Positions 5,884 through 25,908 of a DNA stretch of 64,000 nucleotides are shown piece by piece. Source of the DNA: Negativicutes bacterium (GTDB lineage Bacteria > Bacillota > Negativicutes > UBA1444); NCBI GenBank assembly GCA_963665275.2, contig CAXXIN010000019.1, positions 1-64,000 of the forward strand. Direction: 5' to 3'. Both the position numbers and the translations under genes were made by a program. The notes beneath the pieces are model-generated. The model had not been told where the DNA came from. It worked only from the letters and a program-made list of their open reading frames with translations, and searched no databases. How positions within the stretch are numbered: the first letter of the stretch is position 1; every line of letters begins with the position of its first letter.

Positions 5884-6471
5884 TTATCGACAAACGATAA
5901 GACCCTTTTCCGTCATTAGATATTGCATCTTAATATCGTGTTCTTCTTCAGGAAGCTTATTTTCCAGCTGACATTCCCATGCCATTCCAATCAATACACT
6001 GTCGATGGCTTCCGGCAAGAAACGGTCATAGTACCCTGCACCGAGTCCCAGACGGTTTCCACTCCTATCAAAAGCTACAGCAGGGGTCACTACCATTTGG
6101 ATTGACGAAGGCAAAACGAGCCTGGACGTTTCCGGGTTCGGCATTTTCAGTCCATACTTCCCGACGATCAGATCATCCAAACTCGTGATTTCGGCTGCAG
6201 TCATTTCCCCGTACTTTTCTCCCAAGAGCGGCACACAGACTTGTTTTCCACGTCTTAGAGCATCTCCTATCATTCGTTCTGTCTGCACTTCCTCTGACAT
6301 TGCCAGATAAAACATGACCGTTTCACACCGATGATATATTGGCCATGAACAGAAACAATCCGCAATCTGATTGCTCCACGACGTCACCTGCACTGCCGAG
6401 AGGTTCCGTCTTATTTTTCTCATGTCGCAACGGATGCGCTGTTTTTCTTCTTTTAAGGATTCTTGGATCAC
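5884..6471 (-). CDS. fthC: 5-formyltetrahydrofolate cyclo-ligase
   Basis: K..IR N-terminus, GKYGLKMP, TPAVAFDRSGNRLGLGAGYYDRFL, EEHDIKM; start uncertain (GTG 6471 or ATG 6525). Confidence 0.9.
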   Translation of the reverse strand: MIQESLKEEKQRIRCDMRKIRRNLSAVQVTSWSNQIADCFCSWPIYHRCETVMFYLAMSEEVQTERMIGDALRRGKQVCVPLLGEKYGEMTAAEITSLDDLIVGKYGLKMPNPETSRLVLPSSIQMVVTPAVAFDRSGNRLGLGAGYYDRFLPEAIDSVLIGMAWECQLENKLPEEEHDIKMQYLMTEKGLIVCR

Positions 6472-6529
6472 GATTAACCGTCCCCATTCCTCAGTTGAAT
6501 TTGCATAATTCTTTTCATATAGCATCTTA

Positions 6530-6934
6530 TTATGCTATAAAATCAGCTTCGCTGACCTCAATGCATGAAGTTTGACTTTCCCATAGTGCTACATTTTCAA
6601 GTTTGAGGTTATATTCTTGGCATGCTTCCTGTAAAATTTCATAGAAATAACCTGCAAGATTTTCTGAAGTGGCTGTAAAACTTAATACTTCATTTAACAC
6701 CTTATGATCTACTTTATCAAGTACAACTTCTTTCACAATTTTACTGAACTCCAAAAAATCCAAGACCATACCACCGCTGGATCCTCCAGAGATTGTTCCA
6801 CCATCTGTCCTTGAAATCTCAACTTCCAACTTATAAGTGTGCCCATGCATATTGGCGCATTTGCCTAAGTGATCCGGCAAGAAATGGGCTGCATCAAAAG
6901 TAAATATTTTCTTTGCTTTATATTTCAGCTTCAT
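6530..6934 (-). CDS. queD: 6-carboxytetrahydropterin synthase (PTPS-I/QueD type)
   Basis: FDAAH, CANMHGHTY (CxxxHGH), GMVLDF, DHKVLN, TSENLA, LWES. Confidence 0.88.
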   Translation of the reverse strand: MKLKYKAKKIFTFDAAHFLPDHLGKCANMHGHTYKLEVEISRTDGGTISGGSSGGMVLDFLEFSKIVKEVVLDKVDHKVLNEVLSFTATSENLAGYFYEILQEACQEYNLKLENVALWESQTSCIEVSEADFIA

Positions 6935-6975
6935 CTGTTGATGCCCCCCCTTCTTCTAAATCATTGCAACGTGCT

Positions 6976-7752
6976 CTAGTTGCTCTCATAATGTCGTGCA
7001 TAAGCACTATGATTATGTATTGATTCGAAGTTTTCACATTCAATATCAAACCAATCAATCTTTTCCTGCCCTCGTAGTGCAAGCACCGAGTCTCTAATTA
7101 CGTCTTCAACAAATTTCGGATTATCATAAGCGGACTCTGTTACGAACTTTTCATCCTCGCGTTTTAACAATGAGTAAACTGGCGAGCTGGCTTGTCCCTC
7201 AATCAGCCTAATCACGTCTTCAATCCATAAGAAATTGCCGGGTCGAAATTTTACCTTAACCTTAATATTACTACGCTGATTATGGGCTCCGTATAAAGAA
7301 ATCTCTTTGCTGCAAGGACAAAGAGAAGTTGTTGGTATAGATACGCTTAAGACAAATTGAAAGTCTTCTCCCAATTCACATGAAAAAAGGCAGTTGTAAT
7401 CCAATAGACCAGATAATCCACTTACCGGAGCTGCTTTTTCTAAAAAATATTTAAATCCGAGATCAATATGCGTTCTTTGAGCTCCTGTTCTATTTTGTAT
7501 GTCTTTGAGTATTGCCTGCAATTCTTTGATGGAAATCGGTTGCCGGCTCCATTGATTTAACACTTCAATGAATCGGCTCATATGCGTTCCTTTAAATTGA
7601 TGAGGTAAGTCCACCGTTAATTTGATTTCTGCGAGTACCGATTGAAATTTTCCATTCTTCATTCTGATTATATATGGCAAATAAACATCTTTAACCCCGA
7701 CTCGCTGCAAAGCGATACCACGTTCATCACGAAATGTTTGTACGTCTTTCAC
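6976..7752 (-). CDS. folE2: GTP cyclohydrolase IB
   Basis: MKDVQ, KGTHMSRF, TSLCPCSKEIS, GAHNQRS, LLKREDEK, NPKFVED, ESIHNHSA. Confidence 0.95.
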   Translation of the reverse strand: MKDVQTFRDERGIALQRVGVKDVYLPYIIRMKNGKFQSVLAEIKLTVDLPHQFKGTHMSRFIEVLNQWSRQPISIKELQAILKDIQNRTGAQRTHIDLGFKYFLEKAAPVSGLSGLLDYNCLFSCELGEDFQFVLSVSIPTTSLCPCSKEISLYGAHNQRSNIKVKVKFRPGNFLWIEDVIRLIEGQASSPVYSLLKREDEKFVTESAYDNPKFVEDVIRDSVLALRGQEKIDWFDIECENFESIHNHSAYARHYESN

Positions 7753-7837
7753 TTCGCCTCTCCCACCATTGCTTAATATCCAAAGAACTCCTTGCTTCGT
7801 TTGTTTCTCCTGCTTTCACTCCGAATATTTTCCTATC

Positions 7838-8704
7838 CTATGCAGCACTGTTGTCATTAACACGCTGCTTGGGCATAGTGAATCCCGGCCCCATCACCTC
7901 GACTGCGTCCTGAACAATCATTAATGCACGTGGATCGCTCGCCTCTATTAACATTTTGATTCGGGCAATCTGTGTGAGGTTCACCACAACGAATATGACG
8001 CTTTTATCTTGCAATGTAAAAGCTCCTTTCCCTTGCAAGAACGTCACTCCGCGACCGATCTCATTAATAATTATTCCGGCAATTTGCTCAGCCTGATCAG
8101 AAATAATGATCACTGTCTTCTTGCGATTATACCCCTCTACAACCTTGTCCGTAACAATAGCGCAGACATACATTGAAAGCAGTGTAAGCATCGCTAGTTT
8201 TGCACCGAATAATAATCCAGCAACAAGCATTATGAGGCAGTTCGCACAAAACCCCACTGCCCCAACGTTCAACGCGTAATATTTTTTTGCGATGGCGGCT
8301 ACAATATCTAAACCGCCGGTGTTGCCGTTGACCCGAAATATTATGCCGGATCCCAATCCACTGAATACTCCGCCATATAATGCCGCCAACATGGGATCAT
8401 CAACTATATTTAAGTCCGCTAAAAATCTGGTTGCATCCACTGAAAATGAAAACACCAGCATTCCATATAGCGTTGAAAAAATATGGTTAGGGCCAATGTA
8501 TCTGTAAGCAGCATAAAACAAAGGTACATTAAGCACTATGACTTGCAAACCCACTGGATAATCGTTCAAAAAATGAAGAATGATTGCTATGCCACTAACC
8601 CCACCACTTAGCAAATGGTGGGGAATGATAAATAAATTTATTGATATCGCACCAATCAACCCGCCTATTCCGACCCAGAAGAGTTGTGTTTTTGTATTTT
8701 CCAT
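7838..8704 (-). CDS. YitT/UPF0750-family membrane protein
   Basis: SGGVSGIA, NVPLF, GNTGGLDI, RGVTFLQGKGAFT, DPRA. Confidence 0.88.
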   Translation of the reverse strand: MENTKTQLFWVGIGGLIGAISINLFIIPHHLLSGGVSGIAIILHFLNDYPVGLQVIVLNVPLFYAAYRYIGPNHIFSTLYGMLVFSFSVDATRFLADLNIVDDPMLAALYGGVFSGLGSGIIFRVNGNTGGLDIVAAIAKKYYALNVGAVGFCANCLIMLVAGLLFGAKLAMLTLLSMYVCAIVTDKVVEGYNRKKTVIIISDQAEQIAGIIINEIGRGVTFLQGKGAFTLQDKSVIFVVVNLTQIARIKMLIEASDPRALMIVQDAVEVMGPGFTMPKQRVNDNSAA

Positions 8705-8803
8705 CGTTCCTCCTAGAAAAGTTCAGTAGCACATAAACCTGTCACTTTGTCCCACATTGTAAAATAACAAGCCGTCAATGATGTTTAAAAAGGTACTTCG
8801 TTC

Positions 8804-10150
8804 TCACGATTTTTGCATCAGTGCATATTCTTTTGATTTAACAGCTTCGCTTGGGACAAATTTCTTATTATTCAGTGCAAATGTAATGAACAGCCCTAGC
8901 AGCAAAAGTGCAGAAGCGGACTGAAAAGTGTACTGAGCAGCCTGTTTGTCAAAATTATCTTTCAAAAAAGCTACGATCTGAGGGCCGACAATGCCGGCGC
9001 ACCCCCACGCCGTCAAGATGGTTCCGTAAACGACCGGCATGAGTTTCGAACCGAATGTGTCAAGAATAAATGACGGCATCGCTCCAAACCCGCCACCATA
9101 ACAGAACAGGATATAACAGACGAGTACGCCGAATAGGATCGGATCATTGACGAACAACAATCCGATAAAAACAACTAGCTGACTGCCAAGGATCAAACGA
9201 AAAGTCTGGACACGGCCGATCTTGTCGGAAAGCCATCCCCAGGAAAAGCGACCTGCACCGTTAAAGATGGAACTAACGGCAATCAGTGTTGCACCGGCAT
9301 CTGCCAGTCCTGCAATAACTTGGGGGTCTCCCAGCATAGCCGGGTCCATTATTTTCTTTAGCAGGTCCTGCAGCAGAGGAGACTGGAACCCGATGAATAT
9401 GATGCCGGCAACGATGTTGAAGAAGAACACGGTCCACATCATCAAGAATTTACTGGATAAGATACACTGTCTGGCGGTAATTTCAGCCTGGGAAATCTGC
9501 GCTCCAGTTGACGGTGCTGGGGGAACATAACCATACGGCACAAAACCTGCGGGCGGGTTAACCATAACATACCCGGCAGGCAGAGTAATGAGCAGCATGA
9601 TCACACCGACATAGGAAAACACCATCACCAGATTGCCGTCGGTCATAGACATGAATACCGGAGCCAGAACCTTGGCCATCAGAAGTGCGCCGAATCCGAA
9701 ACCCATGACAACCATACCGGTGATGAAGCCCTTTTTGTCAGGAAACCACTTGGCGGCGGTTGCTACCGGGGTTACATAACCAAGACCCAGACCTATGCCG
9801 CCGATAACTCCGTAACCGATATACAATAGCGGTAAGTTTTGGAGATGGAGCGCATAGGCAGCGATCAAGTAGCCAAGGCCAAATAATAACCCACCGGTCA
9901 TGGCCAATTTTTGCGACCCGAACCGAGGGAGGTTGACGCCGCCCCAGGCGGCAGCCAACCCCAAAAAGAAAATCGCCAGACTAAATACCCAAGCAACCTG
10001 GGTGTTGGACCAGCTTCCGGCAGCCATTACAGGTTGTTGAAAAAAACTCCAGGCGTAAACAGTACCCAGTGCAATCTGCAGCACCGTTCCCATGATGGCT
10101 ACCAGCCACCGATTCGGAATGATTTGTTGTTTCGTAGTCATTATTTCCAT
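8804..10150 (-). CDS. OFA-family MFS transporter (oxalate:formate antiporter-like)
   Basis: GTVYAWS, KWFPDKKG, GFGFG, FNGAGR..WG..SDKIGR, CYGGGFG.MP. Confidence 0.88.
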   Translation of the reverse strand: MEIMTTKQQIIPNRWLVAIMGTVLQIALGTVYAWSFFQQPVMAAGSWSNTQVAWVFSLAIFFLGLAAAWGGVNLPRFGSQKLAMTGGLLFGLGYLIAAYALHLQNLPLLYIGYGVIGGIGLGLGYVTPVATAAKWFPDKKGFITGMVVMGFGFGALLMAKVLAPVFMSMTDGNLVMVFSYVGVIMLLITLPAGYVMVNPPAGFVPYGYVPPAPSTGAQISQAEITARQCILSSKFLMMWTVFFFNIVAGIIFIGFQSPLLQDLLKKIMDPAMLGDPQVIAGLADAGATLIAVSSIFNGAGRFSWGWLSDKIGRVQTFRLILGSQLVVFIGLLFVNDPILFGVLVCYILFCYGGGFGAMPSFILDTFGSKLMPVVYGTILTAWGCAGIVGPQIVAFLKDNFDKQAAQYTFQSASALLLLGLFITFALNNKKFVPSEAVKSKEYALMQKS

Positions 10151-10165
10151 CCCTTGCTCATCCGC

Positions 10166-11833
10166 CTAGAAGAGACCGACGATCTTTCCTCTATTGTCGA
10201 TATCCATGACTTCAGCTGCCGGGCGTTTGGGCAGACCGGGCATGGTCATGATTTCGCCACAGATTGCGATCAAGAATCCTGCCCCGGCAGATACCCGCAC
10301 TTCCCGCACCGTAATCTTAAAGCCGCTGGGACGTCCGAGTTTTGTCGCGTCATCTGTGAGGGAGTATTGTGTCTTGGCCATGCAGATCGGGGTCTTGTCG
10401 AAGCCGAGAGTTGTCAGTTCAGCGATTGTTTTCGCTGCAGAAGCAGTATAGTCGACACCCGCCGCTCCATAAATTTCTTTGGCAATGGTCTCAATTTTTT
10501 CTTTAATGGGCTGTTTCACATCGTATAAGAAACGGAACTGCTTAGGTTTATCCATGGCTGCCAGCACTTTTTTCGCCACAGCTTCGCCACCGGCGCCGCC
10601 TTTGGCCCAAACTTCCGACAAGGCCACTTCGGCGCCCAGCGCCTGGCACTTTTCTTCCACGAACACCAGTTCGTCTTTGGTGTCGGTGGGGAAAGCGTTG
10701 ATGGCAACTACGGCCGGCAGGCCGAATTTACTGATATTTTCGATATGCTTGGTCAAATTATCCATCCCTTTTTCGAGCGCCACCATGTTTTGTTTGCCGA
10801 GATCGGCCTTTGGTACGCCCCCATGAGACTTAAGTGCTCTCACAGTGGTTACGATGACAACGACGTCCGGCTGGAACCCCGCGAAACGACATTTGATATC
10901 GCAGAATTTTTCCGCTCCCAGGTCAGCGCCGAATCCCGCTTCGGTAACAAGAATATCCGCCATTTTGAGGGCGAACTTTGAAGCCATGACGCTGTTGCAC
11001 CCATGAGCTATATTGGCAAAGGGACCACCATGAATAAACGCGGGAGTGTTTTCCAACGTTTGAACCAGATTGGGTTTGATAGCATCTTTGAAAAGGAGAG
11101 TCAGGGCTCCAGCCACTTTGAGATCGGCGACAGTGATTGGTTTATTATCGTATGAGTAAGCAACGATAATTTTATTTATCCGTTCTTTCATGTCGTCCAA
11201 GTCGGATGCCAAACAAAGAATTGCCATCATTTCTGAAGCCACTGCAATATCAAAGCCGCCTTCGCGGGGAATGCCGTTCGCTTTACCGCCCAGACCGAGA
11301 ACGATCTGCCGCAGTGCCCTTTCGTTCAGGTCCATGACCCTCCGCCAGGTGATACGCCGAGGATCAATGTTCAGTTCATTGCCGTGGTGGATGTGGTTGT
11401 CAATGATCGCCGCGAGCAGATTGTTGGCGGTAGAGACAGCATGGATATCTCCAGTAAAATGCAGATTAATATCTTCCATCGGCACGACTTGCGCATAACC
11501 ACCGCCAGCTGCGCCGCCCTTGACGCCGAAACAGGGACCGAGGGAAGGTTCCCGAAGCGCGATAACCACTTTCTTGCCGAGCTGGCGCAGGGCATCGCCA
11601 ATACCAACAGTATTAGTGGTTTTTCCTTCACCGGCCGGAGTCGGATTGATGGCCGTAACCAGCACCACTTTTCCGTTAGGTCGGTTTTTGATTCGTTCCC
11701 AGACATCCAGTGAAACTTTAGCCTTATATTTTCCGTAAAGCTCAAGATCATCTTCAGAGAGACCGAGCTCGATGGCCACCTGTTTGATTGGCTTCATTTG
11801 GGCGGCTTGAGCGATTTCGACATCAGTTTTCAT
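10166..11833 (-). CDS. fhs: Formate--tetrahydrofolate ligase
   Basis: [63 protein letters not shown]. Confidence 0.97.
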
Positions 11834-11844
11834 TTCGACCCCCC

Positions 11845-12714
11845 CTACTTTATCTTGTGTTGTATTTTTGTTGCGATTACCGTATTGAAGAGCAGCATAG
11901 CAATGGTCAGCGGTCCGACTCCGCCAGGAACAGGAGTGATCGCTCCGGCAATCTCTTTGACTTTTTCAAAATCGACGTCTCCGACAAGTTTTTCACCGAG
12001 CCTGTTGATACCTACGTCGATTACCGTTGCACCCGGCTTCACCATATCCGAGGTAACGAAATTGGGTTTGCCGATGGCCGCGACCAGAATATCGGCCTGG
12101 CGTGCAACTTCCGGTAAGTTTGCAGTGCGGGAATGGCAGACTGTGACGGTCGCATTGCGTGTCAGCAGCAAATTGGCCATAGGCTTGCCGACGATATTGC
12201 TCCTGCCAATGATAACCGCTTTTTTCCCTTCAATCGGTATGCCGCTGATCTCAAGCATCTTGATTACGCCGTGTGGAGTACAGGGAACCAGTCCTTCCCT
12301 GCCGATCGACAAATTACCAACATTCAACGGATGAAATCCATCGACATCCTTGTCGGCGCGTATATGGTCAAGGACATTTTCGGTATTAATATGTTTGGGT
12401 AGCGGAAGTTGAACCAGGATACCATTAATTTCAGGGTCTTGGTTCAATGCAGTTAGTTGTTCCAACAGTTCGGCTTCGCTGCTATCCGCAGACATTCGGA
12501 TAACCAACGAATGGATCCCACAATCCTCACATGCTTTGTGTTTGCGCCCGACATACACTTTGGAGGCTGGATCTTCTCCTACAATGATTACTGCTAGGTC
12601 AGGAGTCAAGTTGTATTCAGCCTTAAGAAAGGCTACATCCTTTTGGGTTTCCTCCCCAATTTTCCTGCTTATCAACTTTCCATCAAGAATTATTGAACTC
12701 AAGTTTGTTGTCAC
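11845..12714 (-). CDS. folD: Methylene-THF dehydrogenase/cyclohydrolase
   Basis: [44 protein letters not shown]. Confidence 0.96.
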
Positions 12715-12729
12715 CTCAAAAACAATTAA

Positions 12730-13989
12730 TTATTTGTCATCAAATGCGCCAGAAGGATATAACGGGAAGCGGGAAATCAACGCCTCTGCCTTTGCCTTGC
12801 AATCATCGATGTTTGCTTGATCTTCAGGTGCATTGGCAACTTGATTCATGATTCCTGCGATCTCAACAACTTCAGCCTCTTTTAACCCCCGTTGGGAGAT
12901 GGAAGTCAGGCCGATGCGAACGCCACTGGTGACAAAGGGGCTTGCTGGATCAAATGGAATCATATTTTTATTGACAGTGATCCCCACTTTCTCAAGTGCT
13001 ATCTGAAACATTTTACCGGTTATCCCTTTAAGACGAAGATCTACCAATACAATATGGTTGTCCGTACCGCCGCTGACAATGCGAAACCCGTGTGAAGTCA
13101 ATTCTTGCGCCAATTTTTTCGCATTAATGACGACTTGCTCCATAATCGCACGAAACTCAGGGGTGCCAACGTATTGCAATGAAAACGCTTTTGCTGCAAT
13201 AGTATTGAGATGGATAGAGCCTAAAGATCCCGGGAAAACACCTTTATCAAGTTTTTTGGCATGTTCCGCTTTGCATAGGATAAGACCGCTTCTCGGTCCG
13301 CAAAAAGTCTTGGTTGTCGAAGAAGAAACAAAGTCAGCATAGGGAACCGGGCTTGGAATTACACCTGCGGCTACCAACCCTGCAACATGCGCCATATCAA
13401 CCATCAGGTACGCGCCAGTTTTTTTAGCAATGTCGCTCATCCGCTTATAGTCAATTAAGCGCGGATATGAACTTCCACCTGCAATGATTAATTTGGGCTT
13501 GAATTCATCAGCGAGTTTTTCCAGCGCATCATAATCAATCTGCTCCGTTTGGGGATCAACACCGTAGAACTGGTAGTTATATACTTTTGAGAGAAAGTTC
13601 ACAGGACTGCCGTGAGTCAAGTGCCCACCTTGGTCAAGCCGCATGCTCAAAACGTTGTCTCCAGGGATCAGTATCGCCGCATATACGCCGTAATTGGCAG
13701 TTGAACCGGAATAAACTTGCATGTTTGCATGTTCAGCACCAAAAATCTTCTTTGCCCGCTCGATAGCCAAGGTTTCAATACGATCCGCTATTTGCGACCC
13801 TGCTTGAAAGCGAGCTCCTGGATAACCTTCGGTGGTCTTGTTGGTGAAAACACATCCACTTAATTCCATAACTTCGAGAGGCGCCGTACTTTCTGAAGCA
13901 ATCATTTCGATATTGTGTTCCTGACGATTCAGTTCAGCAGCAACAATTTCGTATACTTCAGGATCGGAAACATGTGTATTTTTCAGCAT
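12730..13989 (-). CDS. Divergent serine hydroxymethyltransferase-family enzyme, probably alpha-methylserine (D-alanine 2-) hydroxymethyltransferase
   Basis: SHMT fold motifs (GGHLTHG, DMAHVAGL, SGGTDNH, NKN) with non-canonical NKTTEGYPGARF, SSSTTKT and GSIHLN. Confidence 0.8.
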   Translation of the reverse strand: MLKNTHVSDPEVYEIVAAELNRQEHNIEMIASESTAPLEVMELSGCVFTNKTTEGYPGARFQAGSQIADRIETLAIERAKKIFGAEHANMQVYSGSTANYGVYAAILIPGDNVLSMRLDQGGHLTHGSPVNFLSKVYNYQFYGVDPQTEQIDYDALEKLADEFKPKLIIAGGSSYPRLIDYKRMSDIAKKTGAYLMVDMAHVAGLVAAGVIPSPVPYADFVSSSTTKTFCGPRSGLILCKAEHAKKLDKGVFPGSLGSIHLNTIAAKAFSLQYVGTPEFRAIMEQVVINAKKLAQELTSHGFRIVSGGTDNHIVLVDLRLKGITGKMFQIALEKVGITVNKNMIPFDPASPFVTSGVRIGLTSISQRGLKEAEVVEIAGIMNQVANAPEDQANIDDCKAKAEALISRFPLYPSGAFDDK

Positions 13990-14081
13990 AATAACACTCC
14001 TAACGAAATTTAATTTGATTTTAGGCCCTATTTGCTTCCACATCTCCCATAACAAACCCAGTAGTTCTTACTGCGAGATTA

Positions 14082-15233: not shown

Positions 15234-15272
15234 GAAATATTCCTCCTTAGATTTGTTCTTGCCAAATCAATA

Positions 15273-15290
15273 TTGCAAGTCCCATGCCAA
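15273..15290 (-). promoter_or_regulatory. sigma54 -24/-12 promoter for the ald-glyA-like-folD-fhs operon
   Basis: TTGGCATGGGACTTGCAA on the minus strand. Confidence 0.8.
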
Positions 15291-15441
15291 TCACTTATTT
15301 TCACAAAATACTTCTTTCAGCGTTTTCATGGAAAGCCAATATTGTCAACACATTTGCCATTTTTTTCACGTTCATTATTCATTACATAAACACGGATAGC
15401 TCTCCAATCATTTCGTAATTGAGTCAATCGTTAATGAATTT

Positions 15442-15457
15442 TTATCAATATTGATAA
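15442..15457. promoter_or_regulatory. Candidate enhancer (UAS) palindrome
   Basis: TTATCAATATTGATAA about 150 bp upstream of the -24 element. Confidence 0.55.
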
Positions 15458-15524
15458 TAGTATTCGTGTTTTCAATAACAATATATGTCATTGCTCAATA
15501 AGCAACAGAAATTCCCCTTAATTA

Positions 15525-15567
15525 TGTAATAAACGATGTCCTGAATTTCAGGACATCGTTTATTACA
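15525..15567. repeat. Perfect 21-bp inverted repeat (terminator-like)
   Basis: tgtaataaacgatgtcctgaa-t-ttcaggacatcgtttattaca. Confidence 0.85.
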
Positions 15568-15691
15568 AGTGCATATGTTCAATATCATTCTGTCCACTCT
15601 ATCTATTTGTCAAAAAAATTATCAATAACAATAATGCGAATTGCTTTGGCGCCCGTGCCTACACGTCTATATTAAATTTTTCCTGAATTAT

Positions 15692-16856: not shown

Positions 16857-16922
16857 CTCTATCCCTCCATGCTTCTCTGTATATATCAACCATAATATTG
16901 ACCATCGACAGTTCCAAATCAA

Positions 16923-18074: not shown

Positions 18075-18203
18075 CTACCCCTCTACTAATGTAGCCTTCA
18101 CCGGCTCTTAGAGATTTCTTCCTGCGAAACTTGCCATCCCCCCTCCATTTAAACTCTTCGTGCTTTCCTTCGCATATAACTCAGGGGCCTTATTATTAGA
18201 CAA

Positions 18204-18220
18204 TGCAATAATTGTGCCAA
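18204..18220 (-). promoter_or_regulatory. sigma54 -24/-12 promoter for the M20A-yjiH-yjiG operon
   Basis: TTGGCACAATTATTGCA, a perfect consensus match. Confidence 0.85.
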
Positions 18221-18393
18221 TTTATCGACATTTAATATTTCAATGGAACAAGGGGTTGATTACATACGAACATGCGCACAAAACACGCCATTCAGCGCTT
18301 TCGAAAAATTAGTTGTATTTGGTTCTGCAAGCATTCCTTGACGCTTCATCCTTGAATATTCCACCCAACCAGAGCTATAATGCAAGCCATATT

Positions 18394-18447
18394 ATTATTT
18401 CTAAGACGTTAATTATTATTTCTAATAATTAACGTCTTAGAAATAAT
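18394..18447. repeat. Perfect 25-bp inverted repeat downstream of alr
   Basis: attatttctaagacgttaattatta-tttc-taataattaacgtcttagaaataat. Confidence 0.9.
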
Positions 18448-18463
18448 CAAAAATCGCATTCAC

Positions 18464-19657
18464 TCATTTTAATTGTTTCTTCCAACCATTGAGACGATCT
18501 TCAATTCGAATATCACCTTTATATTTGAACACGCGAGGAACGCGAGCGCTTATACCGGTTAATATTTCATACGATATTGTTCCTGTCTGATTCGCCAGGT
18601 CATCCGCCGAGATAGTTTCTCCGCCTTGTCGCCCAATTAGGATTGCCTCATCCCTCACCTCAGCAGCCTCCACCTCAGTAACATCAACCATCAACTGGTC
18701 CATGCAAATCCTTCCAACGATAGGCGCCTTGCGTCCTCGTATAATTACACTGCCGCAATTTGATAATAATCTAGGGTATCCATCTGCATATCCTACAGGT
18801 AATGTCGCTATGACCGACTCCCGCTTGGTAACATATGTACAGCCATAACCGATGAATGATCCGGCAGCGATTCTTTTAATATGTGCGATGTGTGTAATCC
18901 AAGATAAGGCGGGACGCAAATCAATTTCGTGTCGTACCTCCTGAGAAGGATAATATCCGTATAAACTAATTCCTTGCCGAACCATATCAATATGTGCCTT
19001 TGGTAAATCAATAATGGCAGCACTATTTGATATATGCTTCACAATGTTGTTAAATCCAGCCGTCTGCATTTCTGCGACTCCTCTCGCAAATACTTCATAT
19101 TGAGCCATTGCATAAGTTTTATCTTCTGCATCGGCTTTTGCAAAGTGGCTGAACACGCCTTCCACTTTGACATACTCCCGGTTATCAGCCAACACCTTAA
19201 TTAATGCTGTTAAATCAATACCTGGCCTCGCACCAAGTCGATTCATCCCGGTTTCGATCTTTACGTGAACAAGAGCCGTTTTTTTTAAGTCTTTCGCGGC
19301 GCGCGATAGGGCATTTACGATTTCAATCGATGACACTCCTTGAGTTAAATCATACTTGATTACGTCATAAGCTCGATCAGAAAAAGTTGCCCCTAAAATA
19401 AGAATTGGTTTTTGTATGCCATGCTCTCGCAAAAATATTCCTTCTTCCAGAATGGCTACACTAAGATAATCGACGCCATTTTCGCAACAAGCCTTACTCA
19501 CCTCCAACGCACCATGCCCATAGGCGTCAGCTTTAACCACTGCCATGATTTTGGTTTCCTCTGCAGTTAACCTTGTAAGTTCGCAAAGATTGTGGATGAT
19601 ATTATCCACTTCAACAATGACAAAGGTGGGTCTTATTCCCTTCAATGACATTTCCAT
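18464..19657 (-). CDS. alr: Alanine racemase
   Basis: AVVKADAYGHG (PLP Lys), HVKIETGMNRLG, IGYG (catalytic Tyr), GYADG, GRICMDQ. Confidence 0.95.
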   Translation of the reverse strand: MEMSLKGIRPTFVIVEVDNIIHNLCELTRLTAEETKIMAVVKADAYGHGALEVSKACCENGVDYLSVAILEEGIFLREHGIQKPILILGATFSDRAYDVIKYDLTQGVSSIEIVNALSRAAKDLKKTALVHVKIETGMNRLGARPGIDLTALIKVLADNREYVKVEGVFSHFAKADAEDKTYAMAQYEVFARGVAEMQTAGFNNIVKHISNSAAIIDLPKAHIDMVRQGISLYGYYPSQEVRHEIDLRPALSWITHIAHIKRIAAGSFIGYGCTYVTKRESVIATLPVGYADGYPRLLSNCGSVIIRGRKAPIVGRICMDQLMVDVTEVEAAEVRDEAILIGRQGGETISADDLANQTGTISYEILTGISARVPRVFKYKGDIRIEDRLNGWKKQLK

Positions 19658-19834
19658 ATTAATTCCATTCCTTTCTAGACAATTAGTCTCTATTCAAACT
19701 TTTAATTTAATAAGCAATTATCATACCAACCTTATATACAACATCTGTTTTCACTTAACTATCCTACGATATTTTTGCAATATGTCTAAAAAAAACAGCC
19801 TACCACTAAAGGTAAGCTATTTCAAAAACCATCG

Positions 19835-21679
19835 TTAAAATTTCTTGTGTCTTGTTTTTTCCCGCCCATCGTCAATATCGATAATAGGTCCTGTAATTTT
19901 TATATCTTGTGCTGCAGTATCAAGCTCCATCAATTTACGATACAACGAAGGAAGGCTAATCCCTAATTCCTTTGCTGCCGCTTCCTTGCCTCTGGCATTC
20001 CAACCATAGCGATTCAACGCATCTGAAATCTGGTTATATTCATACTGCCGCACTTTATCCTTGAGAGTGATTTTCAACGGTAACTGTTCACGAATTCGCT
20101 TAGGCAGACTAGTTTCTCGGATATAATTGCTACTCTCGATATTTACCGCGTATTCGACAGCATTCTCAAGCTCCCGCACATTACCCGGCCAGGAATAGTT
20201 GCCAAGTATCTCAAGGGCGGCAGCAGTAAAGTCGACGACTTCTTTCTTCAACTTAAGTTTATATTTCAGCAAGAAATATTTGCTGAGCATAATAATATCC
20301 TTACGCCTCTCGCGCAAGGGAGGTATGACAATTGGGATAACATTAAGCCGATAGTATAAATCCAGGCGAAACTCTTTCAGGCGGACTTTTTCCTCCAGTT
20401 CTTGGTTCGTCGCCGCGATTATTCTGATATCCAAAGGAATTGTTCGTTCTCCGCCAACTCGATCGAAGTTTCGTTCCTGCAAAACTCTCAGCAACTTAAC
20501 CTGAAGGTGAAGCGGCATATCGCCAATTTCATCCAGAAATAGCGTGCCACCATCAGCCAATTCAAACTTTCCTTGCTTTCCGCCCTTTTTGGCGCCTGTG
20601 AAAGCGCCCTGTTCATAGCCGAAAAGCTCACTTTCCAGAAGCATTTCAGGAATGGCAGCACAGTTGATAGCAATAAATGCATTTTTCCCCCGAGAACTAG
20701 CGGAATGAATGGCGCGCGCCAAAATTTCCTTGCCTGTCCCACTTTCTCCTTGAATTAAAATTGTGGAATCGCTTTGCGATATTTTCATGGCTTCCTGCTT
20801 GATCTGGATAATTTCATCACTTTCACCAATAAAGGACTCAAATGATGTGTCGCCATTCATGCCGACGATCTCATTAACAACCGTTCGAATATCGCGGATA
20901 TCCGTAAGACTGAGCACGCCGCCGGCAATTACCATTTCACTGTAAATCGGTTTTATGGAGATTAAGCAATGAACAGGCGCCTTCCCTGCAAAAATGTGTT
21001 CTTGATGTTTAATGCTATTTCCCGCCTGAATAAATTCAACAATATTTTTCCCAGTCACAATCTGATCAATAAAACAACTTAACAATTTATCGTTCGAGAC
21101 CTTTAGCAACTGTGAGGCCACCTTGTTCGCATGAGTAATTTTCCCGGTATTATCAAAAGTGATAATACCGTCATTGATAGAATCCAGAGTCGTTTCTATC
21201 AAACTGTTAATTTGCTTGACCCACTCGGTATGTTCTTTTTCCCGAATCTTACTTACTAACATTTGTGCCATCTCGTGAATGAACTCCAAGAGTGGGTCAA
21301 TTTTTCCTATCAGACGATAGCGCTGTTCTTCGTCAAAAGCCACCATACTGATGACGCCAATTACTGTACCATCCATCTCGATGGCACATAAAACTTCGGC
21401 GGTTTCCGGGCACTGCCCTTCCAACCGGCAACCCTGGCAATAAATAAAATGACCCGGACTTTTGCAAACTACCGTTTTTTCTGTCATTACAGCATCGATA
21501 AAAGGTTTATGAGGCTCGTAGATTTCTTCCGAATCCTTAACCTTAGCTTCGACATACCCCTTACTGGAAGCTATCAACGCAGAGTCAGCATCCATGATAG
21601 CCACTTCAACCCCTAATGCTGCGGAGATAGCCGCAACCGTATGACGAGCAGAATCTTGAATGTTGCGAAGCTTGGACAT
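19835..21679 (-). CDS. sigma54-dependent enhancer-binding protein (GAF-like, PAS, AAA+, HTH)
   Basis: GESGTGKE, NCAAIPE, GAFTGA, LFLDEIGDM, WPGNVRELEN, C-terminal HTH; N-terminal CxxC-x5-C. Confidence 0.93.
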   Translation of the reverse strand: MSKLRNIQDSARHTVAAISAALGVEVAIMDADSALIASSKGYVEAKVKDSEEIYEPHKPFIDAVMTEKTVVCKSPGHFIYCQGCRLEGQCPETAEVLCAIEMDGTVIGVISMVAFDEEQRYRLIGKIDPLLEFIHEMAQMLVSKIREKEHTEWVKQINSLIETTLDSINDGIITFDNTGKITHANKVASQLLKVSNDKLLSCFIDQIVTGKNIVEFIQAGNSIKHQEHIFAGKAPVHCLISIKPIYSEMVIAGGVLSLTDIRDIRTVVNEIVGMNGDTSFESFIGESDEIIQIKQEAMKISQSDSTILIQGESGTGKEILARAIHSASSRGKNAFIAINCAAIPEMLLESELFGYEQGAFTGAKKGGKQGKFELADGGTLFLDEIGDMPLHLQVKLLRVLQERNFDRVGGERTIPLDIRIIAATNQELEEKVRLKEFRLDLYYRLNVIPIVIPPLRERRKDIIMLSKYFLLKYKLKLKKEVVDFTAAALEILGNYSWPGNVRELENAVEYAVNIESSNYIRETSLPKRIREQLPLKITLKDKVRQYEYNQISDALNRYGWNARGKEAAAKELGISLPSLYRKLMELDTAAQDIKITGPIIDIDDGREKTRHKKF

Positions 21680-21830
21680 GGACCTACCCCCTTCATACGT
21701 TTTTATTCTAATCTTTGCTGGGGCTAAACACAACTTGTGCAACACAAAAATTCAGCGCGCCAAGAATTGCTGCATGCAAGATTAGTCGATATGTTTCGAC
21801 CAGAAAACCATATAAATAATGAGGTGTAGG

Positions 21831-21879
21831 AAAATACAGAAAGCGCTTACCCCCTTGATAAGTGCTTTCTGTATTTTTT
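21831..21879. terminator. Intrinsic terminator after the MetX-like gene
   Basis: aaaatacagaaagcgctta...taagtgctttctgtattttt. Confidence 0.75.
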
Positions 21880-21909
21880 ATACCATCTGCCGCAATATGC
21901 TCAACAAAC

Positions 21910-22902
21910 CTACCTTAAAAAGGCATCACGCAATAGTGGGGCATATAATGAATCGTCCAATAGAAACGCATCGTGCCCATACACTGAATGAACCATGAAA
22001 GTCTCAGGTGTTTGTCCAATTGTGAACCGGATAATGGTTTCCTGTATGATGGCAGGTGAAAACAGTTTGTCCTCCGAACAACCGACAATCATGACTGACG
22101 GCTGGGTTGAAAAAGGCGAAGGTCGGCAATCAAAATCCATCATAGCGTGAAGAAATCCCAGATAACTGTATGGATTAAAACGCATGGAAAAAGCATCCGC
22201 TTCTTGCGAAAGCCACTGGGTCAACCGCCATGAGGGGTCGCCCACCGCAAGCTGTTGGAAGTATTCTTCATCCAGATAAGCCAGCGTCGCCAGTTGCCTC
22301 GCCAATCGCAACCCACGAAACTCTTCCTGCCTGATCATATCCGCCTGGACAGACATTAACCCATATCCGGTGTGCGATACTCGAGCACCGGCATTGAGGC
22401 ATATAGCCGCGCCTACCTTATCAGGATAAGACGCTGCCCAATGAAGGGCCGCCATGCCACCAAGGGATCCGCCGATCACGGCCCGCCATACTTCGATTTC
22501 CAGTTCCTTCTGCAGTTCATGCTGGCAAAACACAATATCGGCTATCGTCGGAAAAGGAAATGATGATCCGAGCTGCTGCCCGGTCTGTTTGTTCACCGTT
22601 GTAGGACCGGAACTACCGAAACAACTGCCTAGGTTATTGGCGCAAACCACGAAGTATTGCAAAGTATCCAGCGCCAAACCCGGCCCAACCGCCCAATCCC
22701 ACCATCCGGGTTCATCGTCTTCAGTGTGTCGGGCCACATGGGAATTGGCCGAGAACCCATGAATAACCAAAATAGCGTTGTCCCTGGCTTCATTCAGTTG
22801 TCCGTAAGTTTCATATACTAATGTGACCTCGTCGATAATCCCCTCATAACGGGCCGGTATTGTATCGGTCGAAAAGGTGCGGAGATTGTGATGGCCCAGC
22901 AT
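21910..22902 (-). CDS. MetX-family alpha/beta-hydrolase O-acyltransferase (divergent)
   Basis: YETYGQLN..RDNAILV, GWW...VGPG, NNLGSC.GSSGP, GGSLGG nucleophile, GHDAFLL. Confidence 0.85.
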   Translation of the reverse strand: MLGHHNLRTFSTDTIPARYEGIIDEVTLVYETYGQLNEARDNAILVIHGFSANSHVARHTEDDEPGWWDWAVGPGLALDTLQYFVVCANNLGSCFGSSGPTTVNKQTGQQLGSSFPFPTIADIVFCQHELQKELEIEVWRAVIGGSLGGMAALHWAASYPDKVGAAICLNAGARVSHTGYGLMSVQADMIRQEEFRGLRLARQLATLAYLDEEYFQQLAVGDPSWRLTQWLSQEADAFSMRFNPYSYLGFLHAMMDFDCRPSPFSTQPSVMIVGCSEDKLFSPAIIQETIIRFTIGQTPETFMVHSVYGHDAFLLDDSLYAPLLRDAFLR

Positions 22903-24083
22903 CAGCTGTGTTGTTCGAGATAATCGAAAGCTAGTTGGGCCAAAGCAGCCGCACCATACCTCAAACAGTCCTCATCCGCATCGAAACGGGGATTGTGCCA
23001 CTGATTAACGATACCTCTTTCCGCATTGCCTACGCCAAGAAACAAGAACACACCTGGAACTTTTTCCTGGAAGCAGGCAAAATCCTCGCCACCCATACTG
23101 GGCGCTGTATTAACCAATCCTTTCGGGCCAAATACCTTTTCAAGAGGAATGCGGCACCATTCAGCCAGCTCCGGCGGATTGACAACCGCCGGCAAGTCTT
23201 TGCGATAAACGAATTCGGCCTCAGTTCTCATGGCAGTGGCTATATTATTGATTACAGAGCGCATTTTTTCGGGCATCTGGACTTGCAGGTCCGGATTGAA
23301 GGTGCGGACAGTCCCGGTAAGCTCGACTATTTCCGGAATTACGTTGTTTGCGTGGCCACCGTGGATCGTTCCAAAAGATATGACTGCCGGTTCCAACGGA
23401 TTGACCTGACGGCTGACAATAGTCTGTAGTCCTTGTATTATCGCTGCGGTCGCAGTGATCGGATCACAGGTGAGATGGGGAATGCCACCATGCCCACCAA
23501 CGCCTTTGACGGTCAGGAACGTGGTATCTACTGCAGCCATCAGTCCGCCAGCTTTCAGAAACACCTGACCGCTGGAGATATTGGGACTGTTATGCAACCC
23601 AAATATCATGGAAACCTTTGGATTTTCGAGCACCCCCTTCTCGATCATGAACTTGGCTCCGGCATTGATTTCCTCGGCGGGTTGAAAAATAAACTTCACC
23701 GTTCCGGCCAAACTGTCCCGACGCTCGGCAAGAAGCATCGCAGCTCCCAGTAGGCCAGCTGTATGGATGTCATGACCACAAGCATGCATAATTCCTTGAT
23801 TTTGAGAACGATAATTGCAATCGTTTTCTTCCTGGACTGGCAATGCATCAATGTCAGAGCGCAACGCCACCACCGGTCCTGGTATGGCGCCTTTAAGCAA
23901 GCCGACGACGCCGGTTTCCCCGCCCCAGTCTACTATTTCTATCCCTAGACTGCTGAGAGTTTGCTTGATCAATTCCGTAGTCCGGAATTCTTTGAAACTG
24001 AGTTCAGGATCCTTGTGCAACTTATGACGAATATCAATAATGTCCTGTTGAAGTTCTGTCGCCCGTTCTATCATTGCTTTCAT
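22902..24083 (-). CDS. M20D amidohydrolase (aminoacylase/YxeP-like)
   Basis: PELSFKE, RSDIDALP, MHACGHD, FQPAEE, GGEDF, HNPRF. Confidence 0.92.
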   Translation of the reverse strand: MKAMIERATELQQDIIDIRHKLHKDPELSFKEFRTTELIKQTLSSLGIEIVDWGGETGVVGLLKGAIPGPVVALRSDIDALPVQEENDCNYRSQNQGIMHACGHDIHTAGLLGAAMLLAERRDSLAGTVKFIFQPAEEINAGAKFMIEKGVLENPKVSMIFGLHNSPNISSGQVFLKAGGLMAAVDTTFLTVKGVGGHGGIPHLTCDPITATAAIIQGLQTIVSRQVNPLEPAVISFGTIHGGHANNVIPEIVELTGTVRTFNPDLQVQMPEKMRSVINNIATAMRTEAEFVYRKDLPAVVNPPELAEWCRIPLEKVFGPKGLVNTAPSMGGEDFACFQEKVPGVFLFLGVGNAERGIVNQWHNPRFDADEDCLRYGAAALAQLAFDYLEQHS

Positions 24084-24265
24084 ACTGCACCTCTGCTTAC
24101 GTTATTTATTTGTATACCCAATGACAGTCCTCAGTTGGGAACTTATAACCGGCAGCAATGGCCGTTTTTCTCGCATTACGATTTATCTTCGTTATCACAT
24201 TTGTGCAACGCTCTTAATGTTAGGACAGGGCCTCATGTACCTAACCCACGTTGTCCTGTCCCCTG

Positions 24266-24712
24266 CTAAATTATTCCTTGCGCACGCAATACTGTTTCGG
24301 CAATAATAACGGCGAACACGAAAGTCCCCGTATACACCGCTAACGCGACTACCACGATTCGCCATGACATTTGTTTAATCATTGGCAAATCTTTACCCAC
24401 TGCCAACCCGGCATAGGCTAAAATGGGGGTTGCAATTGCCATGAATTCCATTTTGTTAGTATAGTCCAAAACAATCTTATTAACGGGTGAAATAGGCGAT
24501 GTAGAAAGCAATGAGATAAGTGAAATCCAGAACACCATAGGGAGTTTTATCGGAAAAAATTCAGATAGAGCCATACCAAGGAGCGTAATACTCACTAACA
24601 TTAGATAACCGATTAGCGCCACATCCCAAGGCAATTTGTAACCGATTGTGTTACCAATAACCGCAATGATGCCTGCTACGATGAATATGACTACAGACTC
24701 TTTCCATTTCAT
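24266..24712 (-). CDS. Small membrane protein, partner of the DUF3100 protein
   Basis: TM helices; ATPILAYAGLAVGKDL, YTGTF; ATGA overlap with upstream gene. Confidence 0.75.
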   Translation of the reverse strand: MKWKESVVIFIVAGIIAVIGNTIGYKLPWDVALIGYLMLVSITLLGMALSEFFPIKLPMVFWISLISLLSTSPISPVNKIVLDYTNKMEFMAIATPILAYAGLAVGKDLPMIKQMSWRIVVVALAVYTGTFVFAVIIAETVLRAQGII

Positions 24713-25518
24713 TTAGGTATGACCTCCCCATCCTCTCTCCGGCCAAGTACAGGCTGCAATTTGCTGTACAAATAGTTGGCAACCGGAAGAGAAACAAATA
24801 GACAAAAGTATATTCCAATAACTGTCGTTAATAGGTTGCTGGCTCCGGCATAAGCAAGAATCTGTTCTTTATACTCTGGAAAAACAGCTATGATAGCTCC
24901 TGATGCAGCCGCCATCATACTTCCCGAACCGACGCCGGCGCCCATTGCCAGTGAGATAGGATGAAAAATCTTCATGGCGCCCAAATATCCGGCCAACAAA
25001 CCTAGCCATACAGCACCGAAAACAGTGCCACAAATATACATTGTCATTACGCCTCGTCCTTCGGGCGAATCCATTCCATACTTTTCAGCAATAATCGCTA
25101 TGTTAGGCTCCCTATCAATGGAAAAGGTTGCTCCAACTGCTTCCCTCTTCATTCCAAGCAGCAAGGCGATCGGAAGGCCCAGCAGTACTGTACCTCCAAA
25201 ATGACCCAGTTCCTGCAGTGACAAAGCCAAGCCAGATTGAGCCAGCTTGGGTACGGCCGGTCCGATAATAACGCCAAGTTTTGTTACAAGTATCAGTGCG
25301 AGCAAACTTAGTACCCGAGTAGCAGCATTCATTTCTGAAAGATTGAGAATTTTCAGCCGAGGAGCGCTGACAAATCCGCCGATAATCATCGCATAAAGCA
25401 TAGGTAAAAACAACAGAACGCCGGGACCCAACGGTACCTTGACCATTCCAATAAACTCACAAATAGCGACAATGATTAGGGCAAAAACATGAATCTTCCA
25501 GTTCTTCATCAATTCCAT
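24709..25518 (-). CDS. DUF3100-family membrane protein (putative transporter)
   Basis: QELGH, MKREAVGATFSIDREPN, SPEGRGV, LAMGAGVGSGSMM. Confidence 0.85.
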   Translation of the reverse strand: MELMKNWKIHVFALIIVAICEFIGMVKVPLGPGVLLFLPMLYAMIIGGFVSAPRLKILNLSEMNAATRVLSLLALILVTKLGVIIGPAVPKLAQSGLALSLQELGHFGGTVLLGLPIALLLGMKREAVGATFSIDREPNIAIIAEKYGMDSPEGRGVMTMYICGTVFGAVWLGLLAGYLGAMKIFHPISLAMGAGVGSGSMMAAASGAIIAVFPEYKEQILAYAGASNLLTTVIGIYFCLFVSLPVANYLYSKLQPVLGRREDGEVIPK

Positions 25519-25629
25519 TTTGCGGCCTCCCTTACATTTTTTCTCAACTAAACAATATTTTTATACACCTCCTTCAAATTAATTATTTATATCTCACAGA
25601 TACCGGTTTCGTAGATTATGAATATATTT

Positions 25630-25645
25630 TGCATTTTTCGTGCCA
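25630..25645 (-). promoter_or_regulatory. sigma54 -24/-12 promoter for the DUF3100-M20D-MetX-like operon
   Basis: TGGCACGAAAAATGCA on the minus strand. Confidence 0.75.
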
Positions 25646-25908
25646 CACTATTAGAATTGCATATAATTACCTTGAAAACTCAAGGTCTGCTCTCCGCAAG
25701 TTGCGCTATATTAATGCATTCTTGCAATCACAATACACTTTAATATTTTTAGATTATTTTTAATATCACGAAAATTTCATAATTGTCTCGTTTTTTTATA
25801 CCGATAATTCTCAATATTAATATGCCAATTATCACAAATAAGAATGCGTCGCCCCTTGGCAACGCCAGCCTAATTTTGCATGTTAATGCGATGGTGATTT
25901 AAAGTACG

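Follow-up and report, generated by a model that had tools for sequence, protein, structure and literature searches.

A candidate sigma54-controlled island for the anaerobic degradation of alpha-substituted serines in a Negativicutes bacterium

We analyzed a stretch of 64,000 nucleotides from the genome of a Negativicutes bacterium (assembly GCA_963665275.2, contig CAXXIN010000019.1, positions 1 to 64,000), hereafter the window. Its minus strand contained 18 consecutive co-oriented open reading frames (ORFs) between positions 5884 and 25518, including a divergent paralog of serine hydroxymethyltransferase (SHMT). With moderate confidence, we read this block as a horizontally acquired, sigma54-controlled catabolic island, which is centered on an SHMT paralog of the PbzB/mSHMT type (EC 2.1.2.7-like) and degrades an alpha-substituted serine. 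Three independent lines, namely the distinct clade of the paralog, the active-site substitutions that this clade has in common with the mSHMT of the Pseudomonas TRIS plasmid and with the PbzB-type motif, and the genes of D-amino-acid metabolism in its neighborhood, point to an alpha-substituted-serine hydroxymethyltransferase of the EC 2.1.2.7 type. This kind of enzyme, its signature motif (2022), and an aerobic catabolic cluster (2024) are already known. The new element, well supported at the level of sequence analysis, appears to be an anaerobic, ATP-conserving, sigma54-controlled form of a pathway known in aerobes. The first-pass annotation of this DNA had proposed a route from alpha-methylserine or its conjugate to pyruvate, ammonia, formate, and ATP; clade, signature, and D-amino-acid neighbors bore out the EC 2.1.2.7-type core of that proposal in silico, but not the general linkage to alr and ald or the "OFA" transporter.

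In the proposed pathway, two transporter-plus-M20 modules would import a conjugate and release the alpha-substituted serine, here most likely 2-methyl-L-serine. Judging from its active-site signature and gene context, the paralog is predicted to move the hydroxymethyl group to tetrahydrofolate (THF), leaving a D-amino acid, here D-alanine. Alanine racemase (Alr) and alanine dehydrogenase (Ald), both assigned to their families, would convert D-alanine via L-alanine to pyruvate, ammonium, and NADH. FolD and Fhs would oxidize methylene-THF to formate with the formation of one ATP per one-carbon unit; the substrate-level formation of ATP from formyl-THF is established biochemistry. An MFS monocarboxylate carrier is the proposed exporter of formate or a monocarboxylate, and a single enhancer-binding protein (EBP) would drive three −24/−12 promoters. 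FolE2, PTPS, and 5-formyl-THF cyclo-ligase (5-FCL) may maintain the folate pool and clear 5-formyl-THF; the presence of 5-FCL fits the formation of inhibitory 5-formyl-THF by SHMT-type enzymes. Combining established reactions, the expected stoichiometry is 2-methyl-L-serine + 2 NAD(P)+ + ADP + Pi → pyruvate + NH4+ + formate + 2 NAD(P)H + ATP. In relatives, the paralog seems to be wired to D-serine ammonia-lyase (DsdA), which would fit a route from 2-hydroxymethylserine via D-serine to pyruvate.

Phylogeny and active site of the SHMT paralog

In a collection of species-representative genomes, the relatives of the paralog formed a tight set at 68–89% identity, all other proteins being at ≤54%. 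The set included proteins of Sporomusa sp. KB1, Negativicutes UBA1444, C. difficile, Anaerotignum, Blautia, Lachnospiraceae, Eggerthellaceae, Synergistales, and Peptoniphilaceae, as well as one delta-proteobacterial record; Acetoanaerobium noterae encoded a further clade member with 66% identity. The clade spanned Negativicutes, Clostridia, Actinomycetota, Synergistota, and delta-proteobacterial records, also occurred in Eubacterium limosum, and comprised about 986 clusters at 90% identity. In the maximum likelihood tree it was monophyletic with a support of 100 and a stem length of 0.72. One E. limosum member is named "2-methylserine hydroxymethyltransferase" in UniRef, which is a database name and not the result of an assay.

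A canonical SHMT was also encoded in all five other carrier genomes checked, where it scored 552–596 bits with PF00464 versus 443–468 bits for the paralog. The window genome and UBA1444 belong to the same GTDB genus. All 11 congeners possessed a canonical SHMT sharing about 51% identity with the window protein. Among them, only UBA1444 also possessed the paralog, and a search of 400 further genomes sampled from the phylum (E ≤ 1e-150) detected it in none. The presence of a distinct tight clade across phyla, the canonical SHMT in carriers and congeners, and the rarity in the phylum indicate that the paralog gene is accessory and horizontally spread.

Several records deserve a separate remark. 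In UBA1444 (L020, contig C272 of G414) the paralog was split over two frames (residues 15–267 and 266–440), reflecting a frameshift or a sequencing error. Two records on short contigs, labelled Desulfobacteraceae (L002) and Patescibacteria (L003), were 88–89% identical to the window protein and may be mis-binned. The genome of Sporomusa sp. KB1 encoded four members of the SHMT family, of which three clustered within 25 kb. One (L004:19341-20621) was a paralog of yet another, third type with N/F/V at Y51/Y60/Y61, Q before the lysine binding pyridoxal phosphate (PLP), and GGPK. Its branch was very long, and a MetX-like hydrolase sharing 43% identity with that of the window was encoded about 1.1 kb upstream of it.

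Residues are numbered according to B. stearothermophilus SHMT (1KKJ), in which Y51, Y60, Y61, and H225 correspond to Y55, Y64, Y65, and H228 of E. coli. The window protein aligned with 1KKJ without gaps and had the SHMT fold with the PLP-binding lysine and the THF/carboxylate ligands. E53, H122, D197, H200, K226, N341, F351, and R357 were conserved; of these, E53, N341, and R357 bind THF or the carboxylate, and F351 was also kept in most clade rows. At the same time, Y51 was replaced by T, Y60 by F, Y61 by Q, and H225 by T, ASENF was changed to ASEST, and QGGPLMH to LGSIHLN. Instead of the canonical GlyA motifs YAEG--RYY and THK, the protein thus had TTEG--RFQ and TTK.

These replacements characterized the whole clade. 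All 20 clade rows had T51, F/Y60, Q61, T/S225, and GS[IM][HQ]L, and all 120 best database relatives had NKT.EG..R[FY]Q and TTK; in the canonical rows, Y51, Y61, and H225 were invariant (61/61), and the displayed rows also had GGPL(M/E)H. The threonine replacing GlyA Tyr55 was therefore present in 20/20 clade rows and 120/120 database relatives, and it was also found in 4/4 proteobacterial mSHMT rows. The latter, glyA2 of plasmid p1_Teo1, whose function has been validated genetically, and its relatives in Shinella p2_Teo12, Paracoccus aminophilus, and Ensifer adhaerens, had T51, F60, H61, T225, and GS[AL]H; the neighboring Ralstonia glyA2 had canonical residues. Among the loci examined, the choice of H or Q in GS.[HQ]L showed no clean relation to a DsdA or Alr partner.

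The functional meaning of these positions was considered for PbzB in 2022 (PMC10098953). There, the GlyA type is defined by YAEG--RYY and the type of PbzB, AsmD, FmoH, and XvbB by TAEG--RYH. The threonine and histidine are argued to enlarge the pocket for an extra alpha-substituent, Y55 and Y65 are called crucial for GlyA-type turnover, and the T68Y/H78Y variant of PbzB lost its activity (PMC10098953).

The protein could alternatively be a working Ser/Gly SHMT in an island fermenting Ser- and Ala-containing peptides or N-acyl amino acids. In this case, serine would yield glycine and a one-carbon unit oxidized to formate with ATP formation, alanine would yield pyruvate, and glycine would be used by pathways encoded elsewhere. 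We consider this improbable. The paralog passed the Pfam and NCBIfam SHMT models, retained the catalytic lysine, E53, H122, D197, and R357, and was accompanied by M20 hydrolases and transporters that fit the use of peptides; PbzB itself still yields traces of serine from glycine (PMC10098953). Moreover, the paralog was the only SHMT found in the window's assembly, which is 92.6% complete, and it could carry the ordinary Ser/Gly duty; this is also a point against our interpretation. However, the replacement of Y55, Y65, and H228 throughout the clade, together with the canonical copies in carriers and congeners, does not favor a Ser/Gly enzyme. The annotated neighbors of the paralog were D-specific enzymes and included no genes for glycine cleavage or glycine reductase.

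The apparent lack of a canonical SHMT in the window's assembly was analyzed using the surroundings of canonical glyA in two complete congeners (L082 and L083). Of about 40 ORFs in the two 17.5-kb stretches, five matched the window's assembly, including both glyA genes, and these matches were scattered, with none together. As this neighborhood was nearly unmatched, the canonical glyA probably lies in an assembly gap; if the gene is truly missing, the genome would have no SHMT other than the paralog. A housekeeping glyA was rejected as the main interpretation owing to the canonical SHMT in carriers and congeners and the likely gap.

Gene neighborhoods of the paralog in relatives

We compared related loci from two sources: 17 non-redundant ones from genomes, with the four C. 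difficile records treated as a single locus, and 17 in-clade ones from metagenomes (Table 1).

Table 1. Genes accompanying the SHMT paralog in related loci
Neighbor	Genome loci (of 17)	Metagenome loci (of 17)	Remarks
Histidine kinase + AraC-type response regulator	9: L004, L006, L009, L011, L012, L013, L016, L018, L019		
AGCS alanine/glycine-type symporter	6: L009, L011, L012, L017, L018, L019		
D-serine ammonia-lyase	4: L004, L011, L012, L016	5: L091, L093, L097, L098, L099	Beside the paralog; NCBIfam 620–675 bits; far above equivalog cut-off in the genome loci
M20a-like hydrolase	4: L002, L006, L009, L018	L094–L096, L104 (with AbgT, C. difficile-type arrangement, 4); L101	Beside the paralog in L002, L006, L009, and L101; 3.5 kb from it in L018
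RidA	2: L004, L011	L099	
FchA	2: L009, L013		
Sigma54 EBP	2: L013, L020		
DsdX-like GntP	1: L004	L091	
alr	1: L019		
ald	1: L013	1: L160	Adjoins paralog in L160, near-identical relative of the window
fhs/folD	1: L009		
FTCD	1: L013		
No informative neighbor	5: L003, L010, L014, L015, L086		

DsdA was the commonest catabolic partner, which suggests that 2-hydroxymethylserine rather than alpha-methylserine is the substrate in most relatives. In the window, the paralog was linked to D-amino-acid catabolism and THF recycling through Alr, Ald, FolD, and Fhs; DsdA accompanied it in four genome loci and five metagenome loci. Such recurring partners, D-specific enzymes and enzymes leading from the one-carbon unit to formate, are what an enzyme producing a D-amino acid and methylene-THF from an alpha-substituted serine would need.

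The closest functional match to the window locus is that of Anaerotignum (L009). It encoded M20a, DUF3100 with its small partner, AGCS, the paralog, a histidine kinase and response regulator, and further fhs, fchA, folD, folC, an FNT formate channel, and 5-FCL. The cluster was closed by 5-FCL and FolC; the FNT channel lies in the cluster corresponding to that with the MFS carrier in the island. The module of UBA1444 (hydrolase, EBP, M20b, the Gate pair, and paralog) had neither alr nor ald, so the D-alanine branch is either an addition in the window genome or a loss in UBA1444. In metagenome locus L091, two copies of the paralog were found side by side, one in the order histidine kinase/response regulator, paralog, DsdA, GntP and the other with an EBP and, further on, M20b-GateA-GateB, indicating that two modules with different feeders exist. 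The order M20b-GateA-GateB was the same in the island, UBA1444, and L091.

The C. difficile locus (L006, 3231-11269) consisted of a cupin-histidine kinase, an AraC-type response regulator, a 362-aa protein, M20a, an AbgT-family transporter, and the paralog, with seryl-tRNA synthetase upstream. No family was assigned to the 362-aa and 370-aa proteins of the C. difficile and Anaerotignum loci.

Another alternative, in our opinion unlikely, is that the island is a regulon for the salvage of D-amino acids or cell-wall peptides, in which M20 hydrolases free D-alanine or D-serine for Alr and Ald (DsdA in relatives) and the paralog acts on another beta-hydroxy amino acid or on D-serine and D-alanine. 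Elsewhere in the genome, at C15:80613-89991 (L170), an M20b paralog with 73% identity was followed by D-serine ammonia-lyase, a class IV aminotransferase, two Amidohydro_3 proteins, DUF5058, and an MR/MLE enzyme. This arrangement ties the M20b type to substrates containing D-amino acids and agrees with salvage. Direct import of D-alanine, D-serine, or glycine would be possible through the AGCS and GntP/DsdX-like carriers encoded next to the paralog; however, the uptake of 2-hydroxymethylserine depends on DsdX in the TRIS system described below (PMC10848231), so such carriers are equally expected for the degradation of alpha-substituted serines. The catabolism of D-serine and D-alanine needs no SHMT-type enzyme, and the signature of the paralog matched enzymes interconverting D-alanine or D-serine with their alpha-hydroxymethylated forms. 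In addition, fhs, folD, and the formate channels argue for the release of one-carbon units.

All core steps of the proposed degradation are reversible, and the characterized PbzB-type enzymes are biosynthetic (PMC10098953, PMC13351049). The genes might make 2-methylserine or 2-hydroxymethylserine from formate and pyruvate or alanine, in the way that FmoH, AsmD, and PbzB provide building blocks of natural products. We regard this direction as highly unlikely. Genes of nonribosomal peptide synthetases (NRPS) or other assembly genes were not seen in any neighborhood scanned; the partners were hydrolases, importers, Ald, DsdA, and RidA, and the regulators (a sigma54 EBP, or a histidine kinase with an AraC-type response regulator) were of the catabolic kind. 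In vitro, FmoH ran mainly towards D-alanine, according to a review (PMC13351049).

Layout and regulation of the island

The 18 ORFs were assigned to families with Pfam and NCBIfam (Table 2). The first-pass annotation had listed about 17 co-oriented genes in a mostly AT-richer block: all the genes it named were found on the minus strand, although the count was 18, and the composition was as described. The G+C content of the island was about 0.45 (mean of twenty 1-kb bins, 6001–26000), compared with 0.51 (five bins, 1–5000) and 0.55 (six bins, 26001–32000) in the flanks; exceptions within the island were 9–12 kb and 22–24 kb, with about 0.50–0.52.

Table 2. Genes and promoter-like sites of the island in the window
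Feature	Coordinates	Strand	Assignment and remarks
P1, sigma54 −24/−12 promoter-like site	25645-25630	−	TGGCACgaaaaATGCA; ahead of the DUF3100 operon
DUF3100 membrane protein, putative transporter subunit	25518-24709	−	Pfam PF11299, 316.7 bits
148-aa DUF3100 partner	24712-24266	−	No Pfam or NCBIfam match
M20a, M20 amidohydrolase	24083-22902	−	TIGR01891, N-acyl-amino-acid amidohydrolase/carboxypeptidase subfamily
MetX-fold alpha/beta hydrolase	22902-21910	−	Pfam Abhydrolase_1; NCBIfam MetX 257.3 bits, below cut-off 331
Sigma54 EBP	21745-19835	−	Weak GAF-like region, PAS, AAA+, HTH_8
Alanine racemase (alr)	19657-18464	−	NCBIfam alr 383.8 bits (cut-off 168)
P2, sigma54 −24/−12 site	18219-18204	−	Perfect TGGCAC-N5-TTGCA; ahead of M20b
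M20b, M20 hydrolase, CPG2/glutamate-carboxypeptidase type	18074-16923	−	Pfam and NCBIfam
Two Gate-domain membrane proteins (GateA, GateB; YjiH/YjiG-like transporter pair)	16922-16197 and 16288-15692	−	Pfam Gate; NCBIfam PRK10519 153.7 bits
P3, sigma54 −24/−12 site	15289-15274	−	TGGCATgggacTTGCA; 40 nt ahead of ald
Alanine dehydrogenase (ald)	15233-14082	−	NCBIfam alaDH 548.3 bits
SHMT paralog, PbzB/mSHMT type, key enzyme	13989-12730	−	Pfam SHMT 462.3 bits
FolD	12714-11845	−	Pfam and NCBIfam
Fhs, formate-tetrahydrofolate ligase	11833-10166	−	Pfam 915.9 bits; NCBIfam 932.1 bits
MFS monocarboxylate carrier, SfMCT-like	10150-8804	−	NCBIfam SfMCT L-lactate transporter 335.5 bits (cut-off 320)
YitT/DUF2179 membrane protein	8704-7838	−	Pfam
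FolE2	7752-6976	−	Pfam and NCBIfam; folate cofactor supply
QueD/PTPS	6934-6530	−	Pfam and NCBIfam; folate cofactor supply
5-FCL	6525-5884	−	Pfam and NCBIfam; folate repair

Regarding individual genes, the longest ORF of the SHMT paralog (441 aa) began with TTG at 14055; the ATG at 13989 (419 aa) is probably the true start. The island alr scored 363.8 bits with the NCBIfam model of VanT-G serine racemase, below its cut-off of 460. The carrier previously termed an "OFA" transporter passed the SfMCT model and failed the oxalate/formate family model (180.6 bits, cut-off 374.85). The sensor region of the EBP gave weak GAF/PAS matches only and no family assignment. The DNA immediately upstream of the island was GC-richer and encoded, on the minus strand (25947-28369), a LytS-type histidine kinase (5TMR-LYT, GAF, His_kinase) together with a LytTR response regulator; the pair looks like a unit separate from the island.

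Second copies of several island genes were found elsewhere in the genome: alr at C19:111975-113090 and folD and fhs side by side on C13, the C13 fhs being 62% identical to that of the island. A second ald (65% identical) was located at C4:41100-43894 with an adjacent sigma54 EBP and a −24/−12 site, TGGCATggtttTTGC. These separate copies indicate that alr, ald, folD, and fhs of the island are dedicated ones. A second DUF3100 gene with its small partner was present on C18, and the same pair occurred beside the paralog in Anaerotignum (L009).

The elements of a sigma54 regulon were present: an EBP with a sigma54-interaction AAA+ domain and an HTH, −24/−12 sites, and rpoN in the genome. The one activator and the three −24/−12 sites reported by the first-pass annotation were confirmed. 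P1, P2, and P3 all had the orientation of the coding strand, and each occupied one of the gaps preceding the operon-leading genes (DUF3100, M20b, and ald). In relatives, EBPs homologous to that of the island were encoded beside the same module in UBA1444 (80% identity) and in L091 (67%). Sigma54 sites directly preceded the SHMT paralog in both loci, and a site equivalent to P2 preceded M20b in UBA1444. Scans for sigma70 promoters and terminators gave results not usefully above those of shuffled sequences. The rpoN gene, the only Sigma54_DBD match of the genome, was likewise situated in the window (51292-51765, minus strand), at a distance of about 26 kb from the island, and about 31 strong EBP matches were found genome-wide.

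Significance and comparison with known systems

Besides the lone SHMT of the assembly, several observations weigh against the degradation of alpha-substituted serines by the island. We know of no natural source of such compounds in anoxic habitats. Position 65 was Gln (RFQ) in all 20 clade rows, not the His (RYH) of the characterized PbzB-type enzymes, and the MFS carrier scored as a lactate carrier, not a formate carrier. The linkage of the paralog to alr, ald, and fhs/folD was rare among relatives. The conserved association with alr and ald that was expected in the first-pass annotation therefore did not prove general, and that with folD and fhs was seen in only one other locus (L009), plus L013 with FTCD and FchA. 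No D-amino-acid enzyme adjoined the C. difficile copy, and five of the 17 genome loci had no informative neighbor (Table 1). The number of −24/−12 matches was not significant by itself (four matches with ≤1 mismatch versus 1.72 expected, and at least four in 7 of 100 shuffles), so the case for the sigma54 sites rests on their placement; a simple k-mer search revealed no activator motif common to the sequences preceding the three promoters, only AT-rich matches attributable to chance. Finally, activity, substrate, or expression data for any clade member were not found in the literature searched.

Full-text searches, with subscription journals outside their coverage, yielded no description of a pathway of this kind from anaerobes, C. 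difficile included, and no mention of DUF3100. A rumen D-serine paper that matched "methylserine" concerns N-carboxymethylserine and is irrelevant. In Appendix A of PMC7712156, 2-methylserine is among the metabolites measured in human feces, which makes a substrate pool in the gut plausible.

On a wider scale, we tentatively suggest that the clade of about 986 clusters, undescribed in the literature searched, may let strict anaerobes such as C. difficile, Eubacterium limosum, Blautia, Anaerotignum, and Sporomusa ferment 2-methylserine or 2-hydroxymethylserine, free or as M20-cleavable conjugates, via D-alanine or D-serine with ATP formation by Fhs. The clade may represent a convergent mSHMT active site, and it may be a microbial sink or source setting the level of 2-methylserine in feces and plasma. 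We place less confidence in this extension than in the reading of the island itself. If true, it would add a new class of fermentable substrates and a new ATP-yielding route to the physiology of anaerobes. A function would be provided for the second "glyA", annotated as plain SHMT, in many anaerobes of the gut and sediments, C. difficile included. It would also make 2-methylserine accessible to genetic study, a routinely reported component of human and animal metabolomes for which neither origin nor fate is known. The same remodelling (Tyr55 to Thr, Tyr65 to a polar residue, His228 to Thr) would have occurred in distant SHMT lineages and could be used for the prediction or engineering of enzymes making or cleaving alpha-tertiary amino acids.

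The reaction proposed for the paralog is that of alpha-methylserine hydroxymethyltransferase (EC 2.1.2.7), which converts 2-methyl-L-serine and THF to D-alanine and methylene-THF. This enzyme was reportedly described by Nozaki et al. in 2008 from Paracoccus, Aminobacter, and Ensifer, its hosts being aerobic proteobacteria. Plasmid-borne relatives in Paracoccus aminophilus and Ensifer adhaerens carried the signature, and we do not equate them with the assayed EC 2.1.2.7 enzymes.

The closest catabolic analogue is aerobic: TRIS cluster II (mSHMT-DsdA-FolD-PurU-DsdX), described in 2024, degrades 2-hydroxymethylserine when expressed in E. coli (PMC10848231). The statement of the first-pass annotation that the enzyme is known from aerobes with no fermentative firmicute locus described can now be refined: an aerobic cluster has been published, and a description from anaerobes was not found in the literature searched. 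The gene order was glyA2-dsdA-folD-purU-dsdX on the Pseudomonas hunanensis plasmid p1_Teo1 and glyA-folD-purU-DadA-DsdA on Shinella p2_Teo12. As in the island, an SHMT paralog with T51, F60, a non-Tyr residue at 61, T225, and GSxH is located beside enzymes of THF recycling and D-amino-acid catabolism, and the logic is common: the one-carbon unit is directed to formate and the D-amino acid to pyruvate. However, the mSHMT of p1_Teo1 was only 49% identical to the window protein and had His at position 61 instead of Gln. In the maximum likelihood tree, the proteobacterial mSHMTs nested with a proteobacterial canonical SHMT, apart from the anaerobe clade. A constrained joint clade of anaerobe and proteobacterial mSHMT-type proteins was not rejected by the approximately unbiased test (p-AU 0.19); therefore, convergence and common origin are both possible. 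The TRIS version relies on PurU, which yields no ATP, DadA/DsdA, and a LysR regulator, whereas the island encodes ATP-forming Fhs, Alr and Ald, a sigma54 EBP, extra M20-plus-transporter modules, and genes of folate supply.

With PbzB, FmoH, AsmD, and XvbB the paralog shares Thr for GlyA Tyr55, a non-Tyr residue for Tyr65, and the retained THF and PLP ligands. These enzymes act on alpha-substituted serines with D-alanine or serine as partners (PMC10098953, PMC13351049), and in vitro FmoH converts alpha-methyl-L-serine to D-alanine (review PMC13351049). Unlike the island paralog, they are encoded in NRPS clusters, where they supply building blocks, and have the motif TAEG--RYH versus T.EG--RFQ in the clade; PbzB (structure 7QWZ) was compared with the window protein through the published motif only.

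The canonical GlyA-FolD-Fhs route of anaerobes employs the same folate enzymes and the same substrate-level formation of ATP from formyl-THF. The island differs from it: a separate fhs-folD pair is encoded on C13, and the island SHMT has neither YAEG--RYY nor THK.

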